Notes: generated by a model not told the origin, from the letters alone. A DNA stretch of 56,085 nt from an uncultured Thermoproteaceae archaeon (GCA_964575955.1 CAZNTG010000010.1:1-56085), one strand, 5' to 3'; shown: positions 663-49,290, numbered from the stretch's first letter. Numbers and translations: made by a program.

Positions 663-1440
663 CTTTTGAATTTTCAGAGAAGTATCTCAATATTCCTATC
701 TTAAAATCTTGACTATTTTGAATTTGAGAATTTGAAACTTCTCTAACAACTTCATCAATCTTTACCTGTCTTTCAACTGTTATACTTCTAGATTCTCTAA
801 ATGGTGTTGTTAATACTTTCCTAACTATGTATATAGTATTTTCAGGAACTCCAACTTTAGACCATAGTTTAACATTATTTAAAGCATTTAACGGTGTTTC
901 AAATTCTTCTAAAATCTTCTCAGCACGTTTATATCCAATTCCGGGAAGTGAAGATAGTAGTTGTATTTGTAATTCTCTAACTGTTAAATTCTTCTTAGCT
1001 TGTTGAGTCTTTAAACCACGCTTTTCCTGTTCTTGCTCCATCTTAGCTATCTCATATATGTAGTATGCTGTTGTCTTCTTATCTTTACTAAATAGTGTAG
1101 ATATGTTGAATTTTGATATTAATGATGTTAATGCTCCAAGTATGCAGTTTATATTGATGTTTAGATACTTAGTAACATTCCAAATATTTCCCTCAATTAT
1201 TATTATCGGTTTTTCATAATTCTCTTTCAACTTCTTAGCTTGTTCAAAAAGTCTACCATCAATTATGGATTTTGCAAAATCTCTAGAAGTTTTTCTCTCA
1301 ATAACTGTCCTGTCAGATACTACATAATCACCAATTTCAAGCATCTTCTCAACTACAGTAGCTCCTAACCTTCTCAATTCTTTAATAACTTCCTGAGCTT
1401 TTCTATATTCTCTAGAGTCTACATAAACTACTGGACACAC
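622..1440 (-). CDS. xpf: Crenarchaeal short-form XPF (ERCC4) structure-specific endonuclease with HhH domain
   Basis: VDSRE, GDY, ERKTxxDFxxSIIDGRLFEQ nuclease motifs and LPGIG HhH motif. Confidence 0.93.
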   Translation of the reverse strand: MCPVVYVDSREYRKAQEVIKELRRLGATVVEKMLEIGDYVVSDRTVIERKTSRDFAKSIIDGRLFEQAKKLKENYEKPIIIIEGNIWNVTKYLNININCILGALTSLISKFNISTLFSKDKKTTAYYIYEIAKMEQEQEKRGLKTQQAKKNLTVRELQIQLLSSLPGIGYKRAEKILEEFETPLNALNNVKLWSKVGVPENTIYIVRKVLTTPFRESRSITVERQVKIDEVVREVSNSQIQNSQDFKIGILRYFSENSKDGKDKGDIEREDT

Positions 1441-1538
1441 TACAAATTATATATTCTTCAAAAAGTTATAAACCAGTGATGATCTTTAACATGATGATAA
1501 TAGTTATATATTTTAAAGACTTGTTTTGAAGTTAGCAA

Positions 1539-2399
1539 ATGTTGACATATGTAGACTCTGTCAAGATAGTTATACTGTCAGATAACTATGTAGTATCTCC
1601 AAATAGACTACTAGGTGAGTGGGGTTTAAGTATATATCTTGAAGTTGATGTAGGTGGTAGAAAATTTAGAATACTATACGATACAGGTCAGACAGGTATT
1701 CCAGTTCTAAATAATGCAGAGATTTTAGGTATAGATCTTTCAAAAATATCATACATAGTTATAAGTCATGGACATTATGACCATACTGGAGGCTTATTGA
1801 AAGTTCTTGAGAAAGTTGGAAAAGATGTACATGTTATTGCACATCCTGAAATATTTTCTAAAAAGTATGTTATTAGAGGAAACTTGAGATATATAGGAAT
1901 TCCATATTCTAGAAAAGAGATTGAAGATATGTGTATACTTACACTAACTAGAGATCTCGTACAGATATGTCCTGGAGTGTATTTTACAGGTGAAGTATTG
2001 AGATATGGATATCCTGAATATACACCAGACATGTATGTACTACGTGATGATGGTAGACTTATTAGAGATTCCATGACTGATGATGCTGCACTTCTAGTAA
2101 ATTTGAAAGATAGAGGATTAATAATTTTAACAGGATGTGGACATGCAGGTATCTTAAACATAATTGAATATTCAACATCTGTTACAGGTATTAGAAAGGT
2201 GTATGGTATTGTTGGTGGACTTCATCAAGAGAGAGAAAGTGATGGTAAGATAGTTGAACTATGTAGATTGCTGGATAAGAGAGATGTTAAGATGATACTA
2301 CCACTACACTGTACAGGTATTAGAGCTTTAAACATATTTAGAAGAGAGCTTGGAGATAGAGTACTTATTGGAGGAGTAGGGACCGTAGTTGAGGTATAG
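1539..2399 (+). CDS. Metallo-beta-lactamase fold hydrolase (COG1237-like)
   Basis: GEWGLS, DTG, SHGHYDHTGG, TGCGHAG, GGLH, HCTG motifs. Confidence 0.88.
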   Translation: MLTYVDSVKIVILSDNYVVSPNRLLGEWGLSIYLEVDVGGRKFRILYDTGQTGIPVLNNAEILGIDLSKISYIVISHGHYDHTGGLLKVLEKVGKDVHVIAHPEIFSKKYVIRGNLRYIGIPYSRKEIEDMCILTLTRDLVQICPGVYFTGEVLRYGYPEYTPDMYVLRDDGRLIRDSMTDDAALLVNLKDRGLIILTGCGHAGILNIIEYSTSVTGIRKVYGIVGGLHQERESDGKIVELCRLLDKRDVKMILPLHCTGIRALNIFRRELGDRVLIGGVGTVVEV

Positions 2400-2433
2400 T
2401 CAACATATAGAGTTAGCATAAGTCTAGAACATT

Positions 2434-3933
2434 ATGATTAGTAGAAACGTAGTTGCAGGACTTTGTAGAACTCTCTTAACATTCACGTCAATAATGCTCA
2501 TGACATGTGTAGTTTCTGCTATTACATGTGTATATTCTCACAAATTCTCTCAACTACCTATAATAGGTGAGACAGCAGCAATACTACTACCAATAGTTGC
2601 AATGTTGTACGTATTGTCTAGAGTTTTAGGTGAGTACTCTATAACTGGGTATGTAGATGCTGTATATGTTGTTGTACTTACATGGATAATATCTGCAATT
2701 ATAGCAACAACGCCATTCCTACTTTCAGGTATACCATTCATAAATGCATTATTTGAATGTGTTAGTGGTCTTACAGGTACAGGACTTACAGTTATGAAAA
2801 ATATTTCAAAACTTCCAATACTTCTAAAACTTTGGAGAGCTGTCTTACAGTGGGTTGGTGAAATTGGTATTGTAGTATTCTTCATAGTTTTTCTTGCAAA
2901 ACCTGGATCACCAATAACATATCTATACCTTGCTGAAGGTAGAGAACGTATTGAGATTACTGTATGGAGAACTACTAAGGTAATGGTTAGAATATACCTT
3001 CTATACACTGCAATATGTACATTACTATACTTCATATCTGGAATAGACATATTCAACTCTATATGCATGGCCATGACAACTATAGCTACTGGAGGATTTA
3101 CAAACTTCAATGTACCACTTCTAAAGATTATTTCTCATATAAGATTTCCAATACTCTTCTACATATCTTGTATATTAATGATGATTCTTGGTGCAATAAA
3201 TTTTAGAGATCATGCAAGACTATTTACAGGTAGGTTTAGAGAAGCTCTATCTACAGAGTTGAAAGCTTTTCTAGTAGTTGCAGGTGTGATATCTATCTTG
3301 ACAGTTCTATCATACATATATACAGACAAGACACCTATACTACAATCTATATATCTTGGAATTTTTCATGCAATATCAGCATTAACAACAACAGGATTTC
3401 AATTAACAAGTTTGAAAAATGTTTCAAATATAACAAAATTAATACTCATAATCGCCATGGTTATTGGTGGATGTACATGCTCAACAGCTGGTGGTATTAA
3501 GATTTTTAGACTTGTTGCATTGTTTAAAATTATTGGTTGGAATATTAGTGAGATAGTTAAACCTCCTGGAACTTTAATTAGAAGAACTATAGGTGGTTTA
3601 AAACTTGATGATAAGGATATTAATAGAATTCTAAGCTTTGTACTACTATACATATTTATACTATTTGTAAGTGCTCTAATAGTTACATCATGTGGCTACT
3701 CATTTATTAATGCACTCTTTGAATGTGCATCAGCACTTGGATGTGTTGGTCTTAGTGTAGGTATTACAAGTTGGTCTACACCTACAGTATGTAAGATTGT
3801 CCTTATTATAGACATGTTGTCTGGTAGACTTGAAATTATTCCATGGTTAACCATAATATCTATGGCAATATCTAGACTTAGATTAGAGAGAAAGAAACTT
3901 AAGACTACTCTAGCAGAGAAACTTGCAGAGTAG
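2434..3933 (+). CDS. trkH: Trk potassium uptake membrane subunit
   Basis: Multi-TM protein with four pore-loop motifs (SGLTGTG, ATGGF, TTTGF, GCVGLS) and STAGGIK. Confidence 0.93.
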   Translation: MISRNVVAGLCRTLLTFTSIMLMTCVVSAITCVYSHKFSQLPIIGETAAILLPIVAMLYVLSRVLGEYSITGYVDAVYVVVLTWIISAIIATTPFLLSGIPFINALFECVSGLTGTGLTVMKNISKLPILLKLWRAVLQWVGEIGIVVFFIVFLAKPGSPITYLYLAEGRERIEITVWRTTKVMVRIYLLYTAICTLLYFISGIDIFNSICMAMTTIATGGFTNFNVPLLKIISHIRFPILFYISCILMMILGAINFRDHARLFTGRFREALSTELKAFLVVAGVISILTVLSYIYTDKTPILQSIYLGIFHAISALTTTGFQLTSLKNVSNITKLILIIAMVIGGCTCSTAGGIKIFRLVALFKIIGWNISEIVKPPGTLIRRTIGGLKLDDKDINRILSFVLLYIFILFVSALIVTSCGYSFINALFECASALGCVGLSVGITSWSTPTVCKIVLIIDMLSGRLEIIPWLTIISMAISRLRLERKKLKTTLAEKLAE

Positions 3934-4991: not shown

Positions 4992-5061
4992 ACTAAACAT
5001 AGAAACTAAATACAAAAACTTTAAACCTTTATCAATAATGAAACAAATACACAAAAATTAA

Positions 5062-5111
5062 ATGATGAACCTGGCCTTCTATGACAGATGATTAGATTGG
5101 CTACAAGCTGA
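5062..5111 (+). ncRNA. Box C/D guide sRNA
   Basis: ATGATGA (C) acctggccttct ATGA (D') cag ATGATTA (C') gattggctacaag CTGA (D). Confidence 0.7.
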
Positions 5112-5366
5112 AACATATCTAACGCAACCTTCAAGACATGACAATAATTCGGACCTATACATTCTCACCATCAGTGCTGCGATATCACGATTTGAAAGCT
5201 TTCTAAGACCATAACGATAAATGAAGTATAGGGTCTCAACAAATACAGGCCACGTAGAGATGACTTGACATTTCAGAGATAGTATTATTCTCTCAAGCCG
5301 ATTAGCCATGTCAACGTCTAGATCGCTCATCTCAAATCCTAGACGTCTAGACAATAATAGTGTCAA
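5079..5366 (-). pseudogene. Possible PIN/VapC-like fragment
   Basis: VISTWPVFVETLYF resembles the PIN second strand/helix. No clear N-terminal D-T-x motif; C-terminus runs into the sRNA. Confidence 0.3.
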
Positions 5367-5377
5367 AGGTTTTGTAT

Positions 5378-5662
5378 CTAAGATGATGTATTCAAGCTTG
5401 TTTCTGTAACATTTTCCATTTTCAGAATGCGACTCTCTTCAGGACCGTAGATTATGCGTTTCTTTCTGAAGGTAAGTCCACGCTCTGTGAGATCTGGTAA
5501 CCATACTATAAGAACTATTTTACCGTCATCAGTCTCTGAAATTTCTGAAACTATCATAAACTCGGCAAGAGTCTCCATCATGAAGCCAGCACTTGCAAGC
5601 TGTTCTCTAACTTTCCTTAGAAGATTATCTAGACTCAACGTAGAGCTCAATGTAGCTCTCAA
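5378..5662 (-). CDS. Hypothetical protein in tRNA-Gly-adjacent variable region
   Basis: 94-aa ORF with protein-like composition, co-oriented with its neighbour. Confidence 0.5.
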   Translation of the reverse strand: MRATLSSTLSLDNLLRKVREQLASAGFMMETLAEFMIVSEISETDDGKIVLIVWLPDLTERGLTFRKKRIIYGPEESRILKMENVTETSLNTSS

Positions 5663-6012
5663 CTATAATCCCATAAGTCAGCTTATTTTTCTAACTACAT
5701 ACTCACCTTAAAGCAAGTTCTACAAATGTCGTAATTAGCTACATGTAGAATATACAACCATATAGGTTAGATCGGTAACATATCGAAACAATACCGCAAG
5801 AATTCCTGTCAATGACATAGATCAGTTACTGAGATTAGACACGCCTATGTGTAGCATATGTGAGAAATATGAGATATTATGAGTGTAGTACTCACATTTG
5901 ACAGAAGCAGTCATAGATGTGACGGTATTAGATAGAGATAACATCCTGAAATTGTAGACATGATGGAAGCACCATATATGCTACCGAGCACTTAGTTAGA
6001 TTAATCATATTT

Positions 6013-34836: not shown

Positions 34837-35448
34837 ATGTGGATAGTATTTGAAGGACCTGACTGTGTTGGAAAAAGCACAATAATACGTAGATTATCAG
34901 AAAAGCTTAGAGATGAAGGTTTTAAAGTTATAACAACATCAGAACCAACAAACTCAAAGATAGGACAATTGATAAGAGATTGGCTCCTTAAAAATATGAT
35001 AAATCCACCACACATATATGCACTACTATTCACAGCAGATAGATATTACCACTACTACAATGAGATAAAGATGAAATTGAAAGAGGGGTACATAGTACTA
35101 CAAGAAAGATATAAACTATCAACAATAGTATATCAAAGCATGATGGGACTAGAAATAGAATGGTTGGAAGAGTTAAATAAATACCTACCTGAACCTGACA
35201 TAACAATAATACTAGATGCAAAACCAGAAACAATACTTCAAAGATTGAGAAGTAGATTAAATAGAGAAGTTTTTGAAAATTTAGAATTCATATCTAAGAT
35301 TAGAGAAGCATATTTAAAAATATGTAAAAAGAAGAAATACATACTAATAAATACGGAAGATGATATTAATAACATAGTTGAAAATGTGTATAGAATAATT
35401 ATTAAAAAACTAACAATCAATACTCAAGACCAACAACACTCCTCCTAA
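34837..35448 (+). CDS. tmk: Thymidylate kinase
   Basis: FEGPDCVGKST, SEP, LFTADR, ERY..S..YQ. Confidence 0.92.
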   Translation: MWIVFEGPDCVGKSTIIRRLSEKLRDEGFKVITTSEPTNSKIGQLIRDWLLKNMINPPHIYALLFTADRYYHYYNEIKMKLKEGYIVLQERYKLSTIVYQSMMGLEIEWLEELNKYLPEPDITIILDAKPETILQRLRSRLNREVFENLEFISKIREAYLKICKKKKYILINTEDDINNIVENVYRIIIKKLTINTQDQQHSS

Positions 35449-35932
35449 TATTTTCATAATAATGCTTTACACATCTAAACTCTGTAACAAGATCAGCAAT
35501 CTCTATAAACTTCATAGGCATATACCTACCTGTCAACAATACATTAACTCCTCTATTAAGAATCTTCTCAATTATATTCAAAATCTTCTCAATTGGATAT
35601 CCATACCTCTCAACTAAAACACCAACTTCATCTAAAATTACTAAAAATACATCATCAAGATTAGCATTTTCTAAATATGTTAATCCAATATCTGCATGTT
35701 TGATAATTTCATCTCTTGAAGATCCTAATCCAGGACCTGTAACTATGTGTACGATATTTTTCATATTTTTCAATATTGCGTATTCTCCAACATTGAGATC
35801 TCTCTTAATGAATTGTATTAAAATAACTTTAAACCCATGACCAATAGCTCTAATAGCAAGTCCTATAGCTGCTGTAGTTTTACCCTTACCATCACCATAG
35901 TAGACTAGTAGAAGACCACGTCCTCTAGACAT
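35417..35932 (-). CDS. cobO: Cob(I)yrinic acid a,c-diamide adenosyltransferase (CobO/BtuR)
   Basis: GDGKGKTTAAIG..RAIGHG, QFIK, ILDE, LTGR, ADLVTE. Confidence 0.92.
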   Translation of the reverse strand: MSRGRGLLLVYYGDGKGKTTAAIGLAIRAIGHGFKVILIQFIKRDLNVGEYAILKNMKNIVHIVTGPGLGSSRDEIIKHADIGLTYLENANLDDVFLVILDEVGVLVERYGYPIEKILNIIEKILNRGVNVLLTGRYMPMKFIEIADLVTEFRCVKHYYENIRRSVVGLEY

Positions 35933-35941
35933 AGCATATCT

Positions 35942-37393
35942 CTATATTAAATCTTTTACAAAATTAACATATTTAACATATCTATCCAACTTTTCTATAA
36001 GTATTCTATATATGTATTCTACACCATTATTTGAATACATAAGATTCCTATCTATAATTTTTGATAAGAGTTTCAAATTAAGTAATGTCTCATGTATAGT
36101 TGTTCCATATATCTTATATTTCTCATTTAGAGAACCTTCTAGATAACTTACATCCTCTGTATTTTCTCTAACTACCATATATAGACTTTCCTCATTATTT
36201 TTGATGGGCATTCCTCTATGTATTTTAAATCCCTCAATCTCAATATTGTTTATGGATGATATAGCTTTAACTCTAGCTACAACCTTTCTTGAACTATATC
36301 TAAATTCGAGATTTAGGAGTGAAAGACCTTTAGCATGTGTTGGTGTACCTGTCTCAAGACCTGTAGGATCACTAATCTTTTTTGATAATATTTGATAACC
36401 TGCACATATTCCAATTATGGGTATAGATCCTACAATCTTCTTAATTTTCTTATCAAATTCTAATTTCTTCAAATATTCTAATGCTTTAAATGTATTTCTA
36501 CATCCAGGAAGTACTAGTAGATCAGGTTCTCCAATTTCAGATGGTTTATATACAAATCTTATAGAGATCTCAGGATGATGTGCTAGTAGTGAAAATTCTC
36601 CAAAATTAGATATGTATGGGTAGTATATTATAGCAATATCTATCTTAGCATTTGGATTATATATTTTTGATAAGCTTACACTATCTTCAGGAAATATGTT
36701 TAAATCTTCTGATAGTGGTAATATAGATAGAACTTCTCTACCTGTCTTTCTCTTTAACCATTCTAATGCTGGTTCTAAAATTTTCGAATCTCCACAAAAT
36801 TTATTTATTATAAATCCAACAACTTTCCTTCTAACATATTCGGGTAGGCATATGTATGTTCCATATAGTGATGTAAATGAGCCTCCATAGTAGATATCTG
36901 ATACTAGTATTATTTTAACATCTTCAAACTTCTTGATAATTTCAAGATTTGCAATATCTACATCTTCAAGATTTGGCTCATATACACATCCTGCACCTTC
37001 CATCACAACTATGTCGAATTTTCTATTTAATATCTTGTATGATAGTGTGACTACATCTCTAAGTTTTTCAATAATTGTTTGATAATATTTTTCAGGTTTT
37101 GTGAAATATTTTGCTTCTCCAAGTACTATAACTTCACTTCTATTATATTCATATGGTTTTATTAATATTGGATTTATATAGCTTGTAGCTTTTATATTAC
37201 ATACCTTCGACTGTATGTACTGTATATATGCAATTTCTTCACCATACCATGTTGATGTGCTATTAAGACTCATATTTTGAGGTTTGAATGGTGTAACGTT
37301 TAGTCCAATATTTCTCAAATATCTACATAGTAGTGTTACTATTGTTGATTTTCCACAATTACTTGATGTTCCTAGTATTGCTATACAGGTCAC
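35942..37393 (-). CDS. cobQ: Cobyric acid synthase
   Basis: GTSSNCGKS, PFKPQNMSLNS, NPILIKP, EGAG, GICAGYQ. Confidence 0.92.
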   Translation of the reverse strand: MTCIAILGTSSNCGKSTIVTLLCRYLRNIGLNVTPFKPQNMSLNSTSTWYGEEIAYIQYIQSKVCNIKATSYINPILIKPYEYNRSEVIVLGEAKYFTKPEKYYQTIIEKLRDVVTLSYKILNRKFDIVVMEGAGCVYEPNLEDVDIANLEIIKKFEDVKIILVSDIYYGGSFTSLYGTYICLPEYVRRKVVGFIINKFCGDSKILEPALEWLKRKTGREVLSILPLSEDLNIFPEDSVSLSKIYNPNAKIDIAIIYYPYISNFGEFSLLAHHPEISIRFVYKPSEIGEPDLLVLPGCRNTFKALEYLKKLEFDKKIKKIVGSIPIIGICAGYQILSKKISDPTGLETGTPTHAKGLSLLNLEFRYSSRKVVARVKAISSINNIEIEGFKIHRGMPIKNNEESLYMVVRENTEDVSYLEGSLNEKYKIYGTTIHETLLNLKLLSKIIDRNLMYSNNGVEYIYRILIEKLDRYVKYVNFVKDLI

Positions 37394-39222
37394 GATTCTT
37401 CTCTCTGTGGTATATAGTAGTAGTATTCTCCAATTTCACGTTGCATTCTATCTAAGACAGATCCTCTCTTATTTATTCTAGGTCTACCAACTTTTGGTTC
37501 TCTTCTAAACGTTATATCTTGCTCTTTTAAAAACATGTTCATACCTTCTCTCAATCCTACAGGACCTACAGCTTTTCCATATTTTCCAGGTTCTCCTGAG
37601 AATACTATTATACAATTTGCTAAGTAGTCTATCATTGTTATATCATGCTCTACTATGAATGCTACAGCTTCTTTCTCTTCTACAATCCTCTTAATTACTG
37701 TTGCAACTCTAATTCTCTGTTCAATATCTAGATATGCCATTGGTTCATCAAGTACGTATAGTTCTGCATCTTTTAATAATGATGCTGCAACGACAACTCT
37801 CTGAACTTCACCACCACTTAATGTTCCTAATTCTCTATCAAGTATTGGTTCTAGATTAAGTCCTGAAGATATGTCAGGCCATGTTGGTTTTTCTATGAAA
37901 TCTCTACCTGCAAATTCTGCTAGAAATCTCCTAACAGTATATTCTGAGTATTTTACTGCAATATCACGAACATACTGTGGTTTATAGCTAATTCTAACCT
38001 CTCCATACGGTATTACAGTACCTTCATCAGGTTCTAACTCACCAACTAGAAGTTTTGCAAATGTCGTCTTTCCAATACCATTAGGTCCAAGTACTCCAAC
38101 AATCTCACCTCTACATATATGTCCACTCTCAACTTCAAGTTTAAAATCTCCAAGATTCTTCTTCAAACTTGTCCATTCAACAAGAATCTTCTCTTTACTT
38201 ACACTTCTTTCAGGTGGTGTTGTTCTAAATGTTATTGCTCTATCTCTAATAACCATATTTTCAACTGTTAAATATCCCTGTAAATACTCGTTAATACCTT
38301 CACGTGCTCCTCTAGTTCTAGATACGATACCGTAAGCTCCAGGTTTTCCATATAGTATCACTACTAGATCTGCAAGATAGTCAAGTACTGCTAAATCATG
38401 ATCGATAACTATCGTATATTTTCCTCTTTGAGTAATCTCTTTAATAGCTTCACAAACTCTCAATCTCTCAACAACGTCTAAGTGTGTTGTTGGTTCATCA
38501 AGAATATATACATCAGCATCTCTAAGTAATGCTGCTGCAATTGCAAGTTTTTGAAGTTCACCGCCACTAAGATGTTTAACATCTCTCTCAAGAATATTTT
38601 CAAGTTTTAATTTTTCGATAACAATCCTCAACTTATCTTCTCTATTACCTGCAATCTTCCTCAAAATATCTATAACCTTACCTTTAACATACATAGGTAT
38701 GAGCTCTATATACTGTATCTTATGTACTATGCTCAACTTCTTTGAATATAGTTCTTGAAAGTATGGTTGAAGTTCTGTACCTCTAAACTTCTTAATAACA
38801 TCTTCAGGTTTTACTTCAGAATCTGTACAGAAGTTTGGTAAAATCTCTCCAGAGAGTATTTTAGCTATTGTAGTTTTTCCAAGACCATTCTGTCCAATAA
38901 TACCTATAACCTTTCCCTGTTTAACAATTGGTAATCTAAATAGTTTAAATCCACTAACACCATACTGATGTATACAGTCTCTTCCAAGCTCTGTTGGTAG
39001 ATTAACTATTGTTATTGCTTTAAATGGACATTTTCTAACACATATACCACATCCTGTACATAGTGCAGTTATTACAGGTCTACCTAACTGCTCATCAAAG
39101 TATATAGCTCTCTTACCTGTTCTTGCAAGTGGACAAAATCTAATACACTCTCTATTACACTTCCTAGGTTGACATAGGTCTTTATCAATTACAGCAATTC
39201 TCAATCCTTCTCTAGATGACAT
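37390..39222 (-). CDS. rli: ABCE1/RLI ribosome recycling ATPase
   Basis: N-terminal 2x[4Fe-4S] Cys motifs, twin ABC domains, GRPRINK..S. Confidence 0.96.
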   Translation of the reverse strand: MSSREGLRIAVIDKDLCQPRKCNRECIRFCPLARTGKRAIYFDEQLGRPVITALCTGCGICVRKCPFKAITIVNLPTELGRDCIHQYGVSGFKLFRLPIVKQGKVIGIIGQNGLGKTTIAKILSGEILPNFCTDSEVKPEDVIKKFRGTELQPYFQELYSKKLSIVHKIQYIELIPMYVKGKVIDILRKIAGNREDKLRIVIEKLKLENILERDVKHLSGGELQKLAIAAALLRDADVYILDEPTTHLDVVERLRVCEAIKEITQRGKYTIVIDHDLAVLDYLADLVVILYGKPGAYGIVSRTRGAREGINEYLQGYLTVENMVIRDRAITFRTTPPERSVSKEKILVEWTSLKKNLGDFKLEVESGHICRGEIVGVLGPNGIGKTTFAKLLVGELEPDEGTVIPYGEVRISYKPQYVRDIAVKYSEYTVRRFLAEFAGRDFIEKPTWPDISSGLNLEPILDRELGTLSGGEVQRVVVAASLLKDAELYVLDEPMAYLDIEQRIRVATVIKRIVEEKEAVAFIVEHDITMIDYLANCIIVFSGEPGKYGKAVGPVGLREGMNMFLKEQDITFRREPKVGRPRINKRGSVLDRMQREIGEYYYYIPQREES

Positions 39223-41261: not shown

Positions 41262-42089
41262 TTAGATATTATATACAACCCAAGTATACATGTAGCTTAG
41301 CTGTGGTATGTACACTATACCATACAGGAACAGTAGTGTTAAGATTTTCATAATGGCCAATACTATAGCTAAGCTTAGAGATATCACAATTATAGATTTA
41401 TCAACAATGCTTAATCTATCATTAATATTATAAACTTCACGAGCTTTTAAGTATCCTCTATATATTAACGCTAGCGTTAATGTATATGATCTTCTAATTA
41501 TTTGTGCTGTTAATGGAATTATTATATGTTTTACAATTTTTATAGGATTTCTATACCTGTATGTTAGTCTGTAGTTTGTAATTATAAGCTTTAGTTCATT
41601 TAGAAATTCATCTAGAAATCTAACTGCAACACCTACAGCAACAGTTACTTTAATATTTTTGAAATATCTTCTCAATATTTTAAAAACTTCAGTATCTGTA
41701 CTAGTCCATGCTACTGATAAGCCTACTAGAATCACGGCTACCATTCTTAGAGATTGTATAAGACCATATATCAATCCTTGATATGTTAGATAGAGTCCTC
41801 CTGTAATCTTTCCAAGTATTGGAAAGTTTTGAGGTATTAATACCAGTATTACTGTCTTTGGTTCTGAACTGTAGAATAATCCTTGTAGTAGTATGAAGCT
41901 CCACATTGTTGGAAATACTATCATAGATGTGAACTTCAATCTATCAACTCCAGGCTTTGATAATAGCCATATAAATAAGCTGAAAAGTGTTAAATATACT
42001 AAATTACTAACTTTATCAAATGTTAACGCTAAAATATTTACCGATAGTAATATTATAAGTCTAGTCAATATATGTAATCTATGAAGCAT
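41262..42089 (-). CDS. ecfT: ECF transporter T component
   Basis: Multi-TM protein with AVRF and IIPL...RS..L..A..YRG coupling-helix motifs. Confidence 0.85.
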   Translation of the reverse strand: MLHRLHILTRLIILLSVNILALTFDKVSNLVYLTLFSLFIWLLSKPGVDRLKFTSMIVFPTMWSFILLQGLFYSSEPKTVILVLIPQNFPILGKITGGLYLTYQGLIYGLIQSLRMVAVILVGLSVAWTSTDTEVFKILRRYFKNIKVTVAVGVAVRFLDEFLNELKLIITNYRLTYRYRNPIKIVKHIIIPLTAQIIRRSYTLTLALIYRGYLKAREVYNINDRLSIVDKSIIVISLSLAIVLAIMKILTLLFLYGIVYIPQLSYMYTWVVYNI

Positions 42090-43803
42090 TTTCTCTCAAG
42101 TATCTATACAAAATATCTAGTAGTTGTCTAGGTCTTATATATACTCCACATCTAGATGCTACACATGCATATTCATTAACTACAAGTCCAACAGTGTCTA
42201 GTATATCTCTTCTCGATAGTATATCTATAGGATTTCCAAAACAAACTATCTTACCATTACTTATGAGTAGTAGCTTATCAACATAATCTATGAGAAAGTT
42301 TGTATCATGAGTAACTATAATCACAATTTTAGACTTATCTTTAACATAGTTTCTCAATACTTCACCTAAAACTTCTATACATTCCTCATCCTGACCTACA
42401 GTAGGTTCATCTAGTAGAAGTATATCAGGATCGTAGGCAAATATTGATGCTATAGCAACTCTAAATCTCTGACCTCTAGATAATGAATGTGGACATCTAT
42501 GCAATAGGTTGTCTATATTAAATATCTTTGAAATTTCTAAAACCCTTCTCTTAGCATCATTAACACTTCTATACTTTATTAAAGCTCTTCTAAAAATTTC
42601 TTCATAAACTGTCTCATGCATTAATATCAAATCAGGATTTTGAGGTACAAATCCTACAATACCTCTAATATCATCTATACTTTTAACAATCCTACCATTA
42701 AATATAATCCTACCTTTAAGGTACGGTACCTGTCTTATAATAGCTTTAAGAAGAGTACTCTTACCAGCACCATTGGGTCCTGCAATACCATATACTAGAC
42801 CACCTCTAAATTCAACATTAATATCTTCCAATATCCATAGTATAGATCTCTTAAATCTCTCAATTTTTGCTATATAACCTGCATATAGATTACATATTTT
42901 TAAAGTTGAACAATTATCTTCTAATTCATGATTACTACCCAACATATATCTATTTCTCACAATGTTTAACACCTTCTCTACAGGCTTGTAATCCGTGTAT
43001 TTTTCAATATTTTCACCTAGTAATTTACTAACTTCTAGATTTATTGGTATTGAGATACCTAATTTTTTAAGATTTTCAATATTTTCATATATTTCATATG
43101 GATTTAATATATTTACTATCTTGTGATTATGGAGTATCACTATCCTATCTATCAGATTATCTTCTATAAATCTTACAACCTCTCTAAATCTATGTTCTAT
43201 AAGTATTGTTGTTTTACCACTACTCTTCAATATTTGTAAAATATTTTTAAATTCTCTACAACTTCTTGAATCTAGATGTGCTAGTGGTTCGTCAAGTATG
43301 ACTATTTTTGGATCTATTGCTAATATGCATGATATTGCTACTTTCTGAACTTCACCACCAGAGAGTTCACTAACTTTTTTATATTTTAAATTTTCTATAT
43401 TCAATATCTTCAATAATTTATCAATATCTTCTTCATTTGCTACTCCTTTAATATTTTCTAAAACTGTCTTAATTTCATCTATAACTTTAGTAAATATTAT
43501 TTGATCATATGGTGATTGTGCTAGATATGTTACTACGTGTATTATGCTGTTAATATCTTCTACTCTTGGATCAATATCACATACTTTTACTATACCTTTA
43601 ACATAGGCTTTCTCGATATGTGGAATTACACCACTTATCACTTTTCCCAGTGTTGATTTTCCTGATCCTGATTTTCCAAGTATTAATACTGTCTCTCCTT
43701 CATATAGCTCAAGTTCATCTACTGTTAGTGCTGATTCGCTCGATGATGGATATCTTACTTCTAGATTCTTAATTTCTAAGATTGGCTTATTCATGAATAA
43801 CAC
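42079..43803 (-). CDS. ECF transporter fused double ATPase
   Basis: Two ABC domains: GKSGSGKST/LSGGE/LDEP and GPNGAGKST/LSRGQ/LDEPTVGQD. Confidence 0.9.
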   Translation of the reverse strand: MLFMNKPILEIKNLEVRYPSSSESALTVDELELYEGETVLILGKSGSGKSTLGKVISGVIPHIEKAYVKGIVKVCDIDPRVEDINSIIHVVTYLAQSPYDQIIFTKVIDEIKTVLENIKGVANEEDIDKLLKILNIENLKYKKVSELSGGEVQKVAISCILAIDPKIVILDEPLAHLDSRSCREFKNILQILKSSGKTTILIEHRFREVVRFIEDNLIDRIVILHNHKIVNILNPYEIYENIENLKKLGISIPINLEVSKLLGENIEKYTDYKPVEKVLNIVRNRYMLGSNHELEDNCSTLKICNLYAGYIAKIERFKRSILWILEDINVEFRGGLVYGIAGPNGAGKSTLLKAIIRQVPYLKGRIIFNGRIVKSIDDIRGIVGFVPQNPDLILMHETVYEEIFRRALIKYRSVNDAKRRVLEISKIFNIDNLLHRCPHSLSRGQRFRVAIASIFAYDPDILLLDEPTVGQDEECIEVLGEVLRNYVKDKSKIVIIVTHDTNFLIDYVDKLLLISNGKIVCFGNPIDILSRRDILDTVGLVVNEYACVASRCGVYIRPRQLLDILYRYLRENAS

Positions 43804-45301
43804 TTCTCAAGTAGATACTTAATCTTAACCCAAGTATGAATCCTATAATTGAGTATATTGTCATTCCCACAACGTACATAGATACATACCAATCTGCATA
43901 GAATAGTCTATATAGAGTCATGTATAGCATAAGATCAACATAGTTATCTATAAATGTTGCAGGTATGAAGCTTAGAATACTTCTAACAGTATTCAATTTA
44001 CCTTCTCCATATGCTCTAAAAATTATGAAGAAAAGTTCGTAAAACATTGCTGTAGTAGATACCCAAAGTAATGATAGTATACTCATTCTACCAAAATAGA
44101 GCACGTTCAGGATCCATGTAACAAACATTATTATAGCAAACGTACCATATCTAGGTCTTAGCGATATTGCAATTCCATAATACATCATTCTAAGAATATC
44201 ATAAAACAATCCCCATAACACCCAGTCAAAAGGACCTAATATTGATGCTATACCCCAAATCATATATCCTGGAATTACAGCCGTTACAAATATTAGACAG
44301 CTAATTAATGCACATGTAACTAACTCTTTAATATTAATATTTCTAAATGACTTTACTAGAAGTATTATGAATATTGGAATTGCTACAAGTCCTGAGAATA
44401 GTACAAGTATTAATGCAATTTTTTCAAGACATATAATCTTTATTGTATATACTTTCTTAAGTATTGGAGTATTACTTCCATATGGATATACATATATTAC
44501 AACTCTATACTTACCAACTATTCTTAGAGGATCTTTATATGTCCAAAGTTGTATAATCTCTCTACTATTACCTTCAATACCTTCAAGAGTTATTATTCCA
44601 GCTTTTACACCAAATTGAGCACTTTCAGGACTAACTGAGAGTATTGGTGCAAGTTTTCCATTTGGAGTTTCTATAAGTATTACAACTGTGTAATATCCAC
44701 TACCTATCAATCTTATACACATGAATCCTATAAAGTGTGGATGTACTTTTCCTGTAAATCCTGATACAATTTTTAATATTGGATTTATACTTCCAGGAAC
44801 TATGACATAAGTATACTTTTCAAGTTTTGTATTAAATTTACATAATGAGTCTGATGGAGCAATCAATTCTACATCAATCTTCTCTGTACGATTTACTTCA
44901 ATTATCCTATACGTGCTATATTCATAGTCTGTACATCTAACATGTAGATAAAGTATACAGTTATGTTTTGTTGTTATTACTTGAAATTGAACTACTTTCG
45001 ATATGTGTAATATTGGTAATGTTAAAATCTTTTCAATATATGTCGTATTTCTATTATTGTAAATCAGTATACATCCTCTTGATCTTAAATATACTTTACA
45101 TATTTCTGATTTTGTTGTATTTGATTCAAGTATTACATAACCATTAACTATCTGGTTTGGAGGTATGTATATTATCTTCTTGCTTATTCCCGGAGGTATT
45201 TGTAAATTAACTATTACTGGTATAGCTTTTAATGTAGTGTTTAATATTAAGAATGTTAGTACTAGTAGAGATATTATGTTTAATATTTTAATGCTCTTCA
45301 C
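43787..45301 (-). CDS. Membrane protein with large extracellular domain and C-terminal S-component-like TM bundle
   Basis: Signal peptide, about 270-aa soluble beta-rich region, then about 7 TM helices including LRPRYG and LYRLFYADWY. Confidence 0.7.
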   Translation of the reverse strand: MKSIKILNIISLLVLTFLILNTTLKAIPVIVNLQIPPGISKKIIYIPPNQIVNGYVILESNTTKSEICKVYLRSRGCILIYNNRNTTYIEKILTLPILHISKVVQFQVITTKHNCILYLHVRCTDYEYSTYRIIEVNRTEKIDVELIAPSDSLCKFNTKLEKYTYVIVPGSINPILKIVSGFTGKVHPHFIGFMCIRLIGSGYYTVVILIETPNGKLAPILSVSPESAQFGVKAGIITLEGIEGNSREIIQLWTYKDPLRIVGKYRVVIYVYPYGSNTPILKKVYTIKIICLEKIALILVLFSGLVAIPIFIILLVKSFRNINIKELVTCALISCLIFVTAVIPGYMIWGIASILGPFDWVLWGLFYDILRMMYYGIAISLRPRYGTFAIIMFVTWILNVLYFGRMSILSLLWVSTTAMFYELFFIIFRAYGEGKLNTVRSILSFIPATFIDNYVDLMLYMTLYRLFYADWYVSMYVVGMTIYSIIGFILGLRLSIYLRSVIHE

Positions 45302-45305
45302 GGTC

Positions 45306-47114
45306 TTAGGATGTGACTATTTTGTATACTCTTAACCTATATTCACCAACTATATGCATTGGCTGTGTTGGTGATTTAGCAGTATTTACAAGTCCTGTAA
45401 GTATGAATATCTTAGAGTCGTATGCTGACACATCTACAGGTATTCCAAGACCTTTCAATACTGTCAATATTCTCAATACTCTACGTGGTTTACCACATAC
45501 ATCCCATACATATACACCACTTAGAGATGCATCTCTACTAACCCAATTTATACCAATACTACCAACTAGGTAACATCCTGTGAGTACGAATGGTCTAACT
45601 TTACCATATGTAGGTTCACCATAGAAGCAGTCTATGTATACTAGATCTCCATTATTCAGTGTAAATACGAACAGTTTTGTACTGTTTGGATGTAATTCTA
45701 TTGGTCTTTTAAGATATCCTGGAGTCCAACCTACAGAATATGTACTGCCAGTATATACAATAACGTACTTATCTGTAACTGCTGCAAGACCTGCATATGT
45801 GTATATGTATGTCTTAACTATCTTCATCTTCAAACCTTTATGTAGTGGTATCATTATTGCTTCAGTCTGTAAGAACTGTACTATACTTCTCTTCCATACA
45901 ATTACAGGTCTCTTCTCTTCAATACTCTTCAAATTATCTAGAACATATATCCTACCTTCACCTGTAACAACTATCAAATACTTACCATTATCAGCAAATG
46001 AAAGACCATTCCATATGGTTGTGTGATTTATGTATGGTATTGGTGGTGTTGGTGAAAATGTGTATAGTGTCTTTCCACTATAGGCATCTATAACCCATAC
46101 TTTACCCATGTGATATTCAACAGGATTCTTAGCATATACTCCCCAAAATGATGCAGCTGCTAGATATCTACCGTTTCTAGATATTGCAAGTATAGGTATG
46201 TCAATATATGCAGGATGTTCTCTAGGCCATACCCAAACTACTCTATGATGTACTATGTCTATAGCAACTATCCTAGACCAATATTTGCTTGTCCAAGTTG
46301 TTACATAGTAGTGTCTATACTTCTTAGCAATTTCAGGATATATCTTCGCTAAATCGTACCTAACTAAGGTATATACAGCATATTGAGTTTTTGGATTAAC
46401 ATATCTCTCGACAACTGTTACATATATTATAGAGCCATTAGGACTTAAAACTATGTAATATGGAACAACTCCAAGCCATGGATTTTTAATAATTGTCTGA
46501 ACTGTCGCATTTGATGGTCCTTTAACAAATTTGTCGAGTTCTAAACTCCATACAATTTTCCAAGTCTTAGTATCGTATATTTGTAGAATTCCTCTTCTAC
46601 ACCATACACCAACAATCATGTATTTTCCATCAGGTGTAAATCTTATAGTTCTAGGAATTTCACCTAGTGGAAATACAATCTTCTTAATAAGACTGCCTGT
46701 ATCTGCATTAAAGATATATAACTCTCCTTTAACAGTACCAACAACAACATACTTACCATCTGGAGATACTGTAACATATCCTTCAAAAAATGTCCACCAT
46801 GTCCAAACTCTGTAGTATATGCCATTTCTAATAAGCCAACTACGCGATATCAATATTGGTGATTGCCATATCAATTCTGCTCTAGGAGTAACAACTTTAA
46901 CCTTTGTTATAACTTTCGGAACGCTAGTAATTGTCTTATTAATACTTACAACATGTCTAGGTTTTACATATCTAGTAGGTTTATAGACATATAATATTGT
47001 TAATACTATAGCTATGATAATTACTACGATACCTATAGCTATGCCAACTTTGGTCTTTGAAACCATGAATGATAGATTATTTAGTAATCTATTAAGTATT
47101 ACGATAGGAGACAT
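45306..47114 (-). CDS. Membrane-anchored beta-propeller (WD40/PQQ-like) protein
   Basis: N-terminal TM helix (start perhaps 47066); repeated SPDGKY, TPDGKY, SPNGS, SRNGRY, ADNGKY blades. Confidence 0.82.
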   Translation of the reverse strand: MSPIVILNRLLNNLSFMVSKTKVGIAIGIVVIIIAIVLTILYVYKPTRYVKPRHVVSINKTITSVPKVITKVKVVTPRAELIWQSPILISRSWLIRNGIYYRVWTWWTFFEGYVTVSPDGKYVVVGTVKGELYIFNADTGSLIKKIVFPLGEIPRTIRFTPDGKYMIVGVWCRRGILQIYDTKTWKIVWSLELDKFVKGPSNATVQTIIKNPWLGVVPYYIVLSPNGSIIYVTVVERYVNPKTQYAVYTLVRYDLAKIYPEIAKKYRHYYVTTWTSKYWSRIVAIDIVHHRVVWVWPREHPAYIDIPILAISRNGRYLAAASFWGVYAKNPVEYHMGKVWVIDAYSGKTLYTFSPTPPIPYINHTTIWNGLSFADNGKYLIVVTGEGRIYVLDNLKSIEEKRPVIVWKRSIVQFLQTEAIMIPLHKGLKMKIVKTYIYTYAGLAAVTDKYVIVYTGSTYSVGWTPGYLKRPIELHPNSTKLFVFTLNNGDLVYIDCFYGEPTYGKVRPFVLTGCYLVGSIGINWVSRDASLSGVYVWDVCGKPRRVLRILTVLKGLGIPVDVSAYDSKIFILTGLVNTAKSPTQPMHIVGEYRLRVYKIVTS

Positions 47115-47122
47115 TAGTAGAG

Positions 47123-48070
47123 CTATAGTACGTATATTGCCATTAGTAGAGCTAGTACATTCGTGAATAGGCTAGTACATAGATCAAACATTATCCATCT
47201 AATAGCTAGTCTAAATCCGAATAATGATGCTCTATATGGAAGATAATGTCTAAAATGTACTATAGGTATTGCTATTAAATTTCCTGTAAATATTGTAATA
47301 AATACTTGCTTTAATGTTATAAATCCCTGATTAAAGAATGTTCCTGCTAAGTATAGTGCTGTTAAGAAGTGAAATATTTGAACCATAACAATACTAATCA
47401 TATACGTATTAAAGCCGAAGTATTGGAGAAGTGGTTTTATAAAGTTTGTAATCATGTTAAATATGTTAAATATTATTAATATACATACAACTCCTGTAGC
47501 TATTGAAAATCTTATTGATATTCTTTTAAACATTGATAATGTCTTCTTAAAGCTAGAGTATAGAATTTCTTTTCTACTTCTTCTAACTCTTCTATTATTT
47601 ACAAATCTGTCTATTGGGACTATCTTTCTTCTCTTTGATACATATATTGCATGTATTATAAGTCTTGTAATTGATCTAAATAGTCCAAATGCTAGATATA
47701 TTAAACCTCCAACTACGCTAAGTACTGATATTGCTATTGGAAATCCAAATCTAAGTGTGTCACATAGCTGTGTTATTGGTGATGTTAAGATTAGTATTGG
47801 AAATATATCATCATCACTCAGACTCCTCTCCTCTTTCAATCTTATAAGCATTGTATAGCTTACTGTTGGACTTATAAATGCCATACTTAGACACATTAGG
47901 TATGGTTCAGGTATTTTGAATAGTCTTGCTAGTGGTTTTACAATATTTGAAAGTTTGTTAAATATATCAAGTTCATATAATATATTTACAATTAGTAAAC
48001 TTGTAAATATTAGAGCTAGTACTTCTATAAAAAATCTTAATAATGTCTTAACTATGTATAGACTTTCCAT
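47123..48070 (-). CDS. Nucleoside-recognition (Gate) domain membrane protein
   Basis: Internally duplicated polytopic protein (KPLARLFKIP...AFISP; KPLLQYFG...RHYLP...FG). Confidence 0.7.
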   Translation of the reverse strand: MESLYIVKTLLRFFIEVLALIFTSLLIVNILYELDIFNKLSNIVKPLARLFKIPEPYLMCLSMAFISPTVSYTMLIRLKEERSLSDDDIFPILILTSPITQLCDTLRFGFPIAISVLSVVGGLIYLAFGLFRSITRLIIHAIYVSKRRKIVPIDRFVNNRRVRRSRKEILYSSFKKTLSMFKRISIRFSIATGVVCILIIFNIFNMITNFIKPLLQYFGFNTYMISIVMVQIFHFLTALYLAGTFFNQGFITLKQVFITIFTGNLIAIPIVHFRHYLPYRASLFGFRLAIRWIMFDLCTSLFTNVLALLMAIYVL

Positions 48071-48177: not shown

Positions 48178-49290
48178 ATGAGAGAAGCACAGCTATATAA
48201 GTCTATAGGTAATGGAAAGGTTATGTGTCTTGCATGTGCTAGAAGATGTAAGATACCTCCTGGTCTTCATGGTTTTTGTGGTGTTAGATGGAATATTGGT
48301 GGTAAACTATACTTAATGGTTTATGGTCTCATATCTGCAATTGCTGTTGATCCAATAGAGAAGAAGCCACTTTATCAATTCAACCCTGGCTCTATGGTAT
48401 TGTCAATATCTACATTTGGCTGTAATTGGATGTGTAAATTCTGTCAGAATTTTGATATTAGTCAAAGAAGACTTCTAGAAGGATTTCATATAACTCCTGA
48501 AATGCTTGTAGAACTTGCACAATCATATGGTGCACAGGGAATAACATATACCTATAATGAGCCTACAATATTTATAGAATATGCATATGATACAGGAACA
48601 ATAGCTCGAAAAAGTGGACTATTCAACACATTTGTAACTAATGGATATTTCACAGATGAGGCTATAGATCTTCTATCAAAGTTTTTAGATGCTGCTACAG
48701 TAGATATTAAGGGTAATGCAGATCCAAAATTCTTAAGAAGGTATTGTGGTGTTCCAGATTCTGAACCAATATTTCAATCATTAGAAGAGTTGAAGAGGAA
48801 GGGAGTGTTTATAGAAGTTACAGATCTAGTAGTACCACAGATTGGTGATGATCTTAATCAAGCTAGAAAATTGTGTAGATGGATTGTAGAACATCTAGGA
48901 CCTGACACACCAATACACTTCTTAAGATTTCATCCAGATTATGAACTTCTAAATCTACCATGGACACCTATAGAGACACTTGAAGAACATGCAAGAATAG
49001 CTAAAGAGGAAGGTTTGAAGTATGTTTATGTTGGTAATGTTCCTGGTCATCCACTAGAACATACATACTGTCCAAACTGTGGAAAAATAGTAATAAAAAG
49101 ATATGGCTTCGATATACTTGAAGTAAATTTGAAAGAAGATAATAGATGTGCATACTGTGGATATAGATTGAATATTGGTGGTAAAGTTTGGTCAACATGG
49201 AAGCTTGAGAACAGGTTTAGATATATACCAATATCATCATTAACAAGATATGTTAGAATAGATATATCAAGTATAGCTAAGAGAAGTTGA
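48178..49290 (+). CDS. amrS: AmmeMemoRadiSam-system radical SAM enzyme
   Basis: DPIEKKPL, CNWMCKFCQN, YTYNEP, RFHP, YVYVGN, CPNC. Confidence 0.9.
   Translation: MREAQLYKSIGNGKVMCLACARRCKIPPGLHGFCGVRWNIGGKLYLMVYGLISAIAVDPIEKKPLYQFNPGSMVLSISTFGCNWMCKFCQNFDISQRRLLEGFHITPEMLVELAQSYGAQGITYTYNEPTIFIEYAYDTGTIARKSGLFNTFVTNGYFTDEAIDLLSKFLDAATVDIKGNADPKFLRRYCGVPDSEPIFQSLEELKRKGVFIEVTDLVVPQIGDDLNQARKLCRWIVEHLGPDTPIHFLRFHPDYELLNLPWTPIETLEEHARIAKEEGLKYVYVGNVPGHPLEHTYCPNCGKIVIKRYGFDILEVNLKEDNRCAYCGYRLNIGGKVWSTWKLENRFRYIPISSLTRYVRIDISSIAKRS

Follow-up and report, generated by a model that had tools for sequence, protein, structure and literature searches.

What does an energy-coupling factor (ECF) transporter import, and how, when its genes are packed together with the gene of a large surface propeller? 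The question is raised by a five-gene operon at positions 41262-48070, on the minus strand, of a 56,085-nucleotide stretch (CAZNTG010000010.1:1-56085; hereafter the window, meaning the whole stretch) from the uncultured Thermoproteaceae archaeon GCA_964575955.1. ECF transporters are defined by the absence of an extracytoplasmic binding protein and by the toppling of their S-component in the membrane. Few microbes synthesize the B12-family cofactors that most require. The usual assumption for archaea is B12 import by BtuFCD-type systems, and for many lineages we know of no inner-membrane B12 importer. A first-pass annotation of the window had proposed that the operon encodes an ECF system for cofactor scavenging, with a corrinoid as the best guess, that has gained an external capture module. 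The combined evidence from domain and fold searches, structure prediction and a survey of related loci identifies the operon as a dedicated (group-I-like) ECF-type ATP-binding cassette (ABC) importer, and on balance we favor corrinoids, collected by a capture platform, as what it brings into the cell.

The membrane protein without a family and its motor

The five closely packed minus-strand genes described by the first-pass annotation were recovered as open reading frames at the exact coordinates and in the order given there, and their domain identities were confirmed. In the direction of transcription they encode a Gate-domain (nucleoside-recognition/FeoB-type) polytopic membrane protein of 315 aa (47123-48070), a predicted membrane-anchored extracytoplasmic beta-propeller of 602 aa (45306-47114) that we regard as the accessory partner of the S-component, a protein of 504 aa without any family match (43787-45301), a fused EcfA-EcfA' double ATPase of 574 aa (42079-43803), and an EcfT/CbiQ-family transmembrane coupling subunit of 275 aa (41262-42089). 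By their coordinates, the genes are separated by 8 and 4 nt and then overlap, the ATPase gene with the S-component gene by 17 nt and the EcfT gene with the ATPase gene by 11 nt; because these spacings are tight or overlapping, the genes are treated as a single operon. Their closest relatives are found in metagenome-assembled genomes (MAGs) labelled Thermoproteota, Thermoproteales or Thermoproteaceae.

The 504-aa protein was modelled with AlphaFold2 from an alignment of orthologues (mean pLDDT 74.7, approximately 80-90 in most of the membrane part). Ten orthologues from archaeal MAGs show 36-59% identity and are best conserved at residues ~295-504. In the model, an N-terminal helix (2-20) and beta-strand domains (29-290) precede helices 295-321, 324-381, 387-403, 408-427, 438-463, and 470-503, in agreement with the annotated signal peptide, extracellular domain of approximately 270 aa, and about seven transmembrane (TM) segments. 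The gene can thus be divided on the minus strand into an N-terminal part (44426-45301), encoding the predicted signal/anchor helix 2-20 and two beta-sandwich ectodomains (~28-292), and a C-terminal membrane module (43787-44425, including the stop codon), encoding an extra helix, TM0 (295-321), and the predicted six-helix S-component core, or S-core (321-504).

The S-component fold that the annotation implied for the TM bundle was recovered in a search independent of Foldseek (VIA), in which nine of the 50 matches listed, the top one among them, were ECF S-components aligned to residues 295/317-504. They include RibU (5kbw, 12.6; 3p5n, 11.7), the S chains of two ECF complexes (4huq_S, 12.5; 4hzu_S, 11.2), BioY (4dve, 10.4), FolT (4z7f, 10.2; 5d0y, 10.0), and a truncated metal S-unit (4m5c, 11.0) that is aligned from residue 295 and hence takes in the extra helix. 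By fold, the bundle is matched best by S-components of the vitamin type and not by CbiM or NikM. As modelled, the C-terminal bundle has the six-helix S-component fold, and the predicted topology is self-consistent: the signal/anchor leads to an ectodomain outside, TM0 returns the chain to the inside, and the S-core follows. In canonical S-components, the N-terminus of the S-core is likewise cytoplasmic. The protein ends with the S-core and carries no output domain on the cytoplasmic side.

Sequence comparison assigned the protein to no family. It had no match in Pfam, CbiM (PF01891) included, or in NCBIfam; two bacterial members also remained unnamed by NCBIfam. Among 30 family members searched against Pfam, 29 were without a match at E<=0.01 and one gave a weak ABC_cobalt match (PF09819, E = 0.0035), and the ESM Atlas named no family for the 504-aa protein, with an ABC_cobalt cluster at 0.88. 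Profiles of the full protein and of its TM module retrieved no S-component at E<=10 from all PDB chain sequences, and by Pfam and PDB sequence profiles the family does not merge with ordinary S-component families. Foldseek applied to the whole model returned Ig/Fn3/MG beta-sandwich matches from the ectodomain only and did not reveal the S-fold. No stand-alone short relatives of residues 296-504 were found by a method that needs shared 5-residue words. The first helix of the S-core holds, as read by eye, the motif C-[AS]-L-x-[SAG]-[CS]-L.

The motor genes were assigned by domain matches. The 275-aa protein belongs to the CbiQ/EcfT family (PF02361, 1e-8, 35.5 bits against a cut-off of 25; TIGR02454, 2.1e-5). 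The 574-aa protein carries two ABC_tran domains in one chain, of which residues 10-274 match ECF_ATPase_1 (TIGR04520, 2e-84, 283 bits, a little under the curated cut-off of 315) and residues 325-549 match ECF_ATPase_2 (TIGR04521, 2.9e-81, 273 bits, a little under the curated cut-off of 330).

Bacterial relatives and their cobalamin riboswitches

Relatives of the 504-aa protein were collected from one genome per species by a pattern-plus-tblastn scan, which yielded 227 confirmed members; the best 80 of these, eight archaeal and 72 bacterial, entered a survey of their loci by local BLAST. The bacterial loci are mostly from Poribacteria; among the others are Deltaproteobacteria, Hydrogenedentota, Myxococcota, and Negativicutes, the last represented by Phascolarctobacterium faecium DSM 14760 and others. 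Between archaea and bacteria, the TM modules are 25-29% identical, and F338, P357, G404, and E422 are invariant, as is a Y-R-L-x-Y-A-x-W block spanning residues 464-471. In all 23 bacterial sequences measured, the C-terminal module spans 209-228 aa behind an N-terminal part of 282-507 aa. Among 1.84 billion representative proteins, a profile of the module matched 456 with E<=0.001; of these, 414 reached E<=1e-10 and 292 reached E<=1e-30. Of the 150 matches listed, by far the most have the module as the C-terminal end of a 450-700-aa protein; about two dozen are shorter and may be fragments. A full-text search outside subscription journals and supplements found no publication on an ECF S-component with an ectodomain and a propeller partner. 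In our judgment, a narrower proposal, which makes the 504-aa protein the representative of a new architectural class of S-components with a B12-related function, is considerably more likely than the full proposal of an ECF corrinoid importer with a capture platform.

The B12-related function is indicated by regulation. Rfam scans for the cobalamin riboswitch RF00174 covered 29 bacterial and eight archaeal loci, and the riboswitch was found in 14 of the 29: in 12 of 14 Poribacteria (five of seven loci in one set and all seven in a further one) and in two of 15 other bacteria (two of seven mixed loci in one set and none of eight in another). In every positive locus it lies on the operon strand upstream of the S-component gene, and the P. 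faecium locus L064 has two additional copies downstream of the operon. Full scans of two chromosome-level Poribacteria genomes gave a single RF00174 match each, and it precedes the operon of the 504-aa family. The family is under cobalamin-riboswitch control in bacteria.

The genes that follow the riboswitch also point to B12. The order in L064 is riboswitch, TonB receptor, ATPase, S-component, fused ATPase, EcfT, and propeller, and in L021, from an Acidaminococcales MAG, it is riboswitch, TonB receptor, propeller, S-component, fused ATPase, and EcfT. Both TonB receptors had TonB-B12 as their best NCBIfam match (2e-37 in L064 and 1.5e-36 in L021), ahead of heme receptors and far below the curated cut-off. 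In Poribacteria, the riboswitch is followed by a YVTN/YncE propeller of 376-620 aa with a dockerin, the S-component, and a WD40-like propeller; this riboswitch-proximal YVTN propeller gene occurs in 49 of the 80 loci. The Poribacteria YVTN propeller matches BtuG2/BtuG3 weakly (8bmy, 0.011; 8bmx, 0.013; 3dsm, 0.01; 8okv, 0.044; excerpts of PMC10404256 give these PDB codes as BtuG), and a YVTN S-layer propeller outranks these matches (2e-12).

Two of these loci showed further features of B12 metabolism. At L021:4409-5500, adjoining the uptake operon, a homologue of the CbiK-type sirohydrochlorin cobaltochelatase has its own cobalamin riboswitch and a 103-aa N-terminal extension, and may be exported. 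The 2.3-Mb P. faecium genome (G019) contains 15 RF00174 matches, six of them on one contig and four of these within the 21-kb L064, so that its B12 regulon is unusually dense.

In Poribacteria, the S-component and the motor are split in a group-II-like manner. Each of the 12 Poribacteria genomes examined has one CbiQ-family gene, except for one genome with two, at a distance of megabases from the S gene, and in the three loci inspected it is preceded by a fused ATPase 29% identical to that of the window. A further gene, encoding ~610-672 aa, precedes the motor (L095:5820-10425, L096:5812-10246, L097:9949-14542). In L095, the product of this gene was considered as a second S-component of the 504-aa family and rejected, being a B12-binding radical SAM protein; no riboswitch was detected at this motor locus by Rfam. 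The presumed motor of the B12-regulated S-component in Poribacteria thus adjoins a B12-dependent enzyme.

Cobalt, taken up as ion or small chelate for corrin-ring synthesis, is the first alternative to a corrinoid as the ligand, and the ectodomain and propeller would then capture a metal or metallophore. Genomes that carry the system were compared for CbiC/CobH, which is needed for any corrin-ring synthesis. CbiC was present in 15 of 26 genomes of a mixed carrier set, a count on the side of cobalt, and in none of the 50 Poribacteria genomes carrying the operon. Where ring synthesis is lacking, as in Poribacteria, there would be little reason for cobalt import to be the only function regulated by B12; these genomes thus argue for corrinoid rather than cobalt import, as do the TonB receptors that score best as BtuB, the BtuG-like propellers of the Poribacteria operons, and the vitamin-type fold matches of the S-core. 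The riboswitch-led CbiK-like gene of L021 and the weak ABC_cobalt signals (PF09819 in one of 30 members and the Atlas cluster) are on the side of cobalt. The riboswitch alone cannot separate the two ligands, because cobalamin riboswitches also govern cobalt systems (CbiMNQO, CbtJKL) and predicted cobalt TonB receptors, as described in parts of PMC7689651.

The propeller partner and comparison with known importers

The second conserved element of the system is the propeller. The predicted structure of the 602-aa protein comprises an N-terminal helix (20-44) and a confident beta-propeller (77-602, pLDDT 90), with weak WD40/PQQ-type repeat matches in two blades by Pfam. In seven of the eight archaeal and 55 of the 72 bacterial loci, a propeller homologue shares the strand of the S gene and lies no more than 1.5 kb from it. 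For the motor, the corresponding numbers are six of eight archaeal and 18 of 72 bacterial loci for an adjoining fused ATPase on the same strand, and six of eight and 16 of 72 for EcfT within 3 kb on the same strand. The operons of L064 and L021 (by Pfam PQQ_2) and of L058, L061, and L063 (by BLAST) have the propeller gene at a later position, and in L009 and L077 it lies several kilobases from the S gene; some of the loci without a propeller are short contigs. The conserved pair of S-component and propeller spans two domains of life.

In L009, an IS605/TnpB (Cas12f-like) gene (5018-5887) separates the EcfT and propeller genes, and this insertion may explain the displaced propeller. A Selenomonadales MAG (L012:3-13634) holds two complete tandem copies of the system, one in the order S-component, ATPase, EcfT, propeller and the other in the order propeller, S-component, ATPase, EcfT; Rfam detected no riboswitch in this locus.

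Residues 80-601 of the propeller and 27-504 of the S-component were modelled as a complex in three runs with three controls, using our own alignments. The median score was 0.61 (0.60, 0.61, and 0.67 in individual runs), compared with 0.00 for the best of the controls; the mark is reached by 58 of 80 solved complexes and two of 110 mismatched pairs, a calibration that is rough only, given that our own alignments were used. The runs agreed on at least 45% of contacts, with partner pLDDT of at least 75. In the model, propeller residues 413-496 and 582-583 contact ectodomain residues 34-59, 96-105, 152-154, and 205-279. Docking of the propeller on the ectodomain is supported by this model and by the conserved adjacency of the two genes, and the same two lines support the external capture module of the first-pass annotation. 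The annotation had described the protein as an anchored propeller, which the structure prediction bears out, and had pointed to the BtuG propeller of Bacteroides; the best matches of the operon propeller are of the WD40/BamB type, and BtuG was not among the matches listed.

Toppling does not seem easy to square with a large ectodomain that has a propeller bound to it, and the system might not be an importer at all: the S-fold module could act as a receptor, or the ECF machinery could traffic a cofactor outward to the surface propeller. According to PMC11109136, sensor kinases and MreD have the S-component fold too. The abstract of PMC9973259 describes an ECF system with a role in extracytosolic trafficking, and ECF subunits are reported to traffic flavin in Listeria. 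We consider such a role highly improbable here: 21 of the 80 loci have a complete ECF motor overlapped by the S gene, the protein ends at the S-core with no cytoplasmic output domain, and the logic of a riboswitch followed by TonB receptors points to uptake under B12 scarcity.

As an importer, the operon can be compared with several characterized systems. The structure 5edl ("S-component of ECF transporter"), which we take to be the thiamine-specific YkoE of the Bacillus subtilis YkoEDC system with its fused double ATPase YkoD, has no significant sequence similarity to the 504-aa protein and neither ectodomain nor propeller, and the regulatory and genomic context of the operon family is that of B12, not thiamine. 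CbiMNQO and NikMNQO (S-unit 4m5c) are likewise encoded in group-I operons with a CbiQ-family T unit, and they use the extra extracytoplasmic or membrane components CbiN or NikK/NikL. CbiM and NikM bind metal through a free N-terminus. Unlike CbiM, the 504-aa protein lacks PF01891 and has a 270-aa ectodomain before TM0 in place of the free metal-binding N-terminus, a further point against cobalt; unlike CbiMNQO, its system has a 600-aa propeller as partner and is present in genomes without corrin synthesis. CbiMNQO shares with the family that it can be under cobalamin-riboswitch control (PMC7689651, in part). ECF-CbrT of Lactobacillus delbrueckii (PDB 6FNP), described in sections of PMC5997447 as a cobalamin/cobinamide ECF transporter, resembles the operon as an ECF ABC importer composed of an S-component, EcfT, and two ATPase domains, with a B12-family substrate that in our case is inferred. 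CbrT shares one ECF module with other S-components, and the S gene of Poribacteria similarly stands apart from a single motor locus; in the window, by contrast, the motor is dedicated to the operon and its ATPases are fused. CbrT also consists of the six-helix core only, without ectodomain, TM0, or propeller partner. The Bacteroides BtuB-BtuG system likewise devotes a surface beta-propeller to a riboswitch-controlled B12 uptake route (PMC10404256 and PMC6143338). BtuG is a lipoprotein capping an outer-membrane TonB transporter, whereas the operon propeller is predicted to be helix-anchored and WD40/BamB-like, its modelled docking site is the ectodomain of an S-component in the inner or cytoplasmic membrane, and it occurs in an archaeon, which has no outer membrane.

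The ligand in the archaeon

In archaea, the connection to corrinoids was assessed from gene neighborhoods. The first-pass annotation had pointed to cobQ and cobO about 4 kb downstream of the operon. Their position was confirmed: cobQ (35942-37393; GATase_3 and CbiA domains) and cobO (35417-35932; CobA_CobO_BtuR), both on the minus strand and outside the operon, lie 3.9 kb past its end. The proximity is weak evidence when taken alone, because a convergent DUF460 gene and the housekeeping gene ABCE1/RLI (37390-39222, minus strand) lie in between; apart from cobQ and cobO, the neighbors of the operon are housekeeping genes. The synteny of radical SAM gene, operon, DUF460, and ABCE1 is shared by L002, L005, and L006, and L002 reaches cobQ. 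Two other archaeal loci place the system beside different cobalamin genes. In L007, from a more distant Thermoproteales MAG, four same-strand genes with small gaps run straight into the propeller, S-component, ATPase, and EcfT genes; they encode a cbiET-like fusion of TP_methylase and methyltransferase, a TP_methylase, CbiG, and another TP_methylase. In L008, a Gate gene, 2 kb upstream of the propeller, comes immediately after the genes for CobN and a ChlI/ChlD-type chelatase subunit. No cob genes were found in L003, L004, and L009 with the limited queries used. Together with the riboswitches in 14 of 29 bacterial loci, the BtuB-like receptors, and the BtuG-like propellers, these cbi and cobN flanks make a strong case for the link between homologues and corrinoid genes that the first-pass annotation had asked about.

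The genome to which the window belongs (1.52 Mb in 15 contigs, the window being contig C10, with approximately 31% G+C; completeness 94.7%, contamination 0.5%) encodes CbiB, CobS, a CobD-like aminotransferase, B12-binding proteins, and CbiZ, which we take to be the archaeal cobinamide-salvage amidohydrolase. The organism probably salvages corrinoids. The most likely ligand in the archaeon is a corrinoid, either a cobamide or an incomplete one such as cobinamide or cobyric acid.

A number of observations count against corrinoid import by the operon or against parts of the proposed arrangement. In bacteria, no riboswitch was seen within the retrieved DNA of 13 of the 15 non-Poribacteria loci (two of these 13, from Phascolarctobacterium, have the gene order of L064), and approximately 27 of the 50 Poribacteria also have a strong FecCD permease. 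In archaea, Rfam identified tRNAs only, and no riboswitch, in the window and the eight archaeal loci; the archaeal corrinoid link thus rests on homology and neighborhood. The genome of the window contains CbiC, CbiD, and six TP_methylases above cut-off, which suggests that the organism makes corrin de novo. It also contains a canonical CbiM (C6:235006-235626) and a Peripla_BP_2/FecCD/ABC operon, a BtuFCD-type system that could itself import corrinoids; as the ECF system is not the only candidate corrinoid importer of the organism, any claim that it is necessary is weakened. For the scavenging role proposed at first pass, the corrinoid link was upheld, and scavenging is not forced by a genome with de novo markers, CbiM, and a BtuFCD-type system. 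At the level of proteins, PDB profiles gave no sequence similarity of the 504-aa protein to CbrT, BtuM, or any solved S-component, the presence of 6FNP in the searched set being unconfirmed. BtuG (8BMX, 8OKV, 3DSM) was not among the best 60 PDB profile matches of the operon propeller or among the 50 Foldseek and 50 VIA matches listed, an absence that does not exclude relatedness. The modelled interface is less conserved than the rest of the propeller (0.28 vs. 0.37), so that the complex model is not corroborated on the propeller side; on the ectodomain side it is only slightly more conserved across phyla (0.27 vs. 0.21, permutation p ~0.03) and similar to the remainder among archaea (0.53 vs. 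0.49, p 0.26).

Some of these observations suit cobalt as the ligand, namely the CbiC, CbiD, and six TP_methylases of the window genome and the position of archaeal relatives in cbi and cobN-chelatase clusters. Since the genome already holds a canonical CbiM, cobalt is less likely as the substrate in this organism, and with the Poribacteria evidence we judge cobalt import by the operon to be unlikely. Others would suit an archaeal branch that drifted to another bulky micronutrient (another tetrapyrrole, heme, or another cofactor), with its cob neighbors coincidental and B12-related ligands confined to the bacterial branch. The low identity between archaeal and bacterial TM modules, the lack of riboswitch matches in archaea, and the three of eight archaeal loci without a cob gene by the queries used fit such a drift, and heme ECF systems exist, according to the abstract of PMC7299338. 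In opposition to it, LGPF and YRL(Y/F)YADW (the 464-471 block) in the S-core do not vary between archaea and bacteria, nor does E422, the propeller is kept as a partner, and three distinct archaeal arrangements (window/L002, L007, and L008) lie next to cob genes. We therefore hold a drifted archaeal ligand to be quite unlikely, somewhat more so than cobalt.

Under the favored reading of corrinoid import, the propeller and the two beta-sandwich ectodomains would form a fixed cell-surface capture platform that collects a scarce, bulky ligand and passes it to the S-core, to which it would be tethered by TM0. Residues E422, Y464, R465, Y468, and W471 of the S-core may line the binding pocket. The motor, composed of EcfT and the fused EcfA-A' ATPase, would then drive toppling of the S-core and carry the ligand in, and the imported corrinoid would feed CobO, CobQ, CbiB, CobS, and CbiZ.

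The 315-aa protein matched Gate (PF07670) below cut-off (E = 2.5e-4, 21.9 bits against 29.6), and its nearest ESM Atlas clusters are Gate-domain proteins (0.97). By BLAST, a Gate homologue lies within 6 kb on the same strand in four of the eight archaeal loci and one of the 72 bacterial loci, and L007 has one on the opposite strand; its association with the system is mainly archaeal, and it may be a transporter with no relation to it. A scan of the operon for bacterial-type signals gave 49 promoter-like sites compared with 52.9 expected and no terminators, which is uninformative for an archaeon. Downstream, and likewise on the minus strand, cobQ overlaps ABCE1 by 4 nt and a 10-nt gap separates cobQ from cobO, and the ABCE1-cobQ order is found again in L002; ABCE1, an essential ribosome-recycling factor, thus appears to be co-transcribed with two cobalamin genes. 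On the other side, the operon has as its divergent neighbor a radical SAM gene of the AmmeMemoRadiSam system (48178-49290; TIGR04337, 318.8 bits against a cut-off of 220), which also adjoins the operon in L002, L005, L006, and L007 and is 84-92% identical there, whereas the transporter genes are only 45-74% identical.

Two further archaeal arrangements were noted. In L007, one NifH-like and two Oxidored_nitro (nitrogenase-component-1-type) genes (223-3870, minus strand) lie directly upstream of the cbi genes and divergent from them, and could encode a NifH/NifDK-like tetrapyrrole reductase, an enzyme type that occurs in the F430 and chlorophyll pathways. In L003 and L004, the S-component gene is followed by tRNA genes (L003:7595-7915, L004:6665-6738), not by ATPase and EcfT genes, and the only CbiQ match found elsewhere in genome G001 was weak (5.2e-4, below cut-off); the motor in these two archaeal MAGs is either divergent or missing from the bin.

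The 504-aa family is a candidate B12 importer that would fill a gap in known inner-membrane uptake, and it rests on a clear regulatory signature, the sole cobalamin riboswitch of two complete genomes without corrin-ring synthesis. The reach of the family extends from sponge symbionts and human-gut Negativicutes to thermophilic archaea. The chances seem to us even that it represents an undescribed S-component class of both domains of life, marked by the fusion to an ectodomain, one additional helix, and an obligate partner propeller of the WD40-like type, that serves as a main corrinoid route in Thermoproteota, Poribacteria, Negativicutes, and other phyla. An S-component fused to approximately 270-500 extracellular residues and joined by a 500-aa propeller would be a new way to catch scarce, bulky ligands. 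If the proposal is true, the window holds the first ECF-type corrinoid importer described in archaea, and its S-component works while tethered to a large capture platform, so that the free-toppling picture of ECF transport would need revision.

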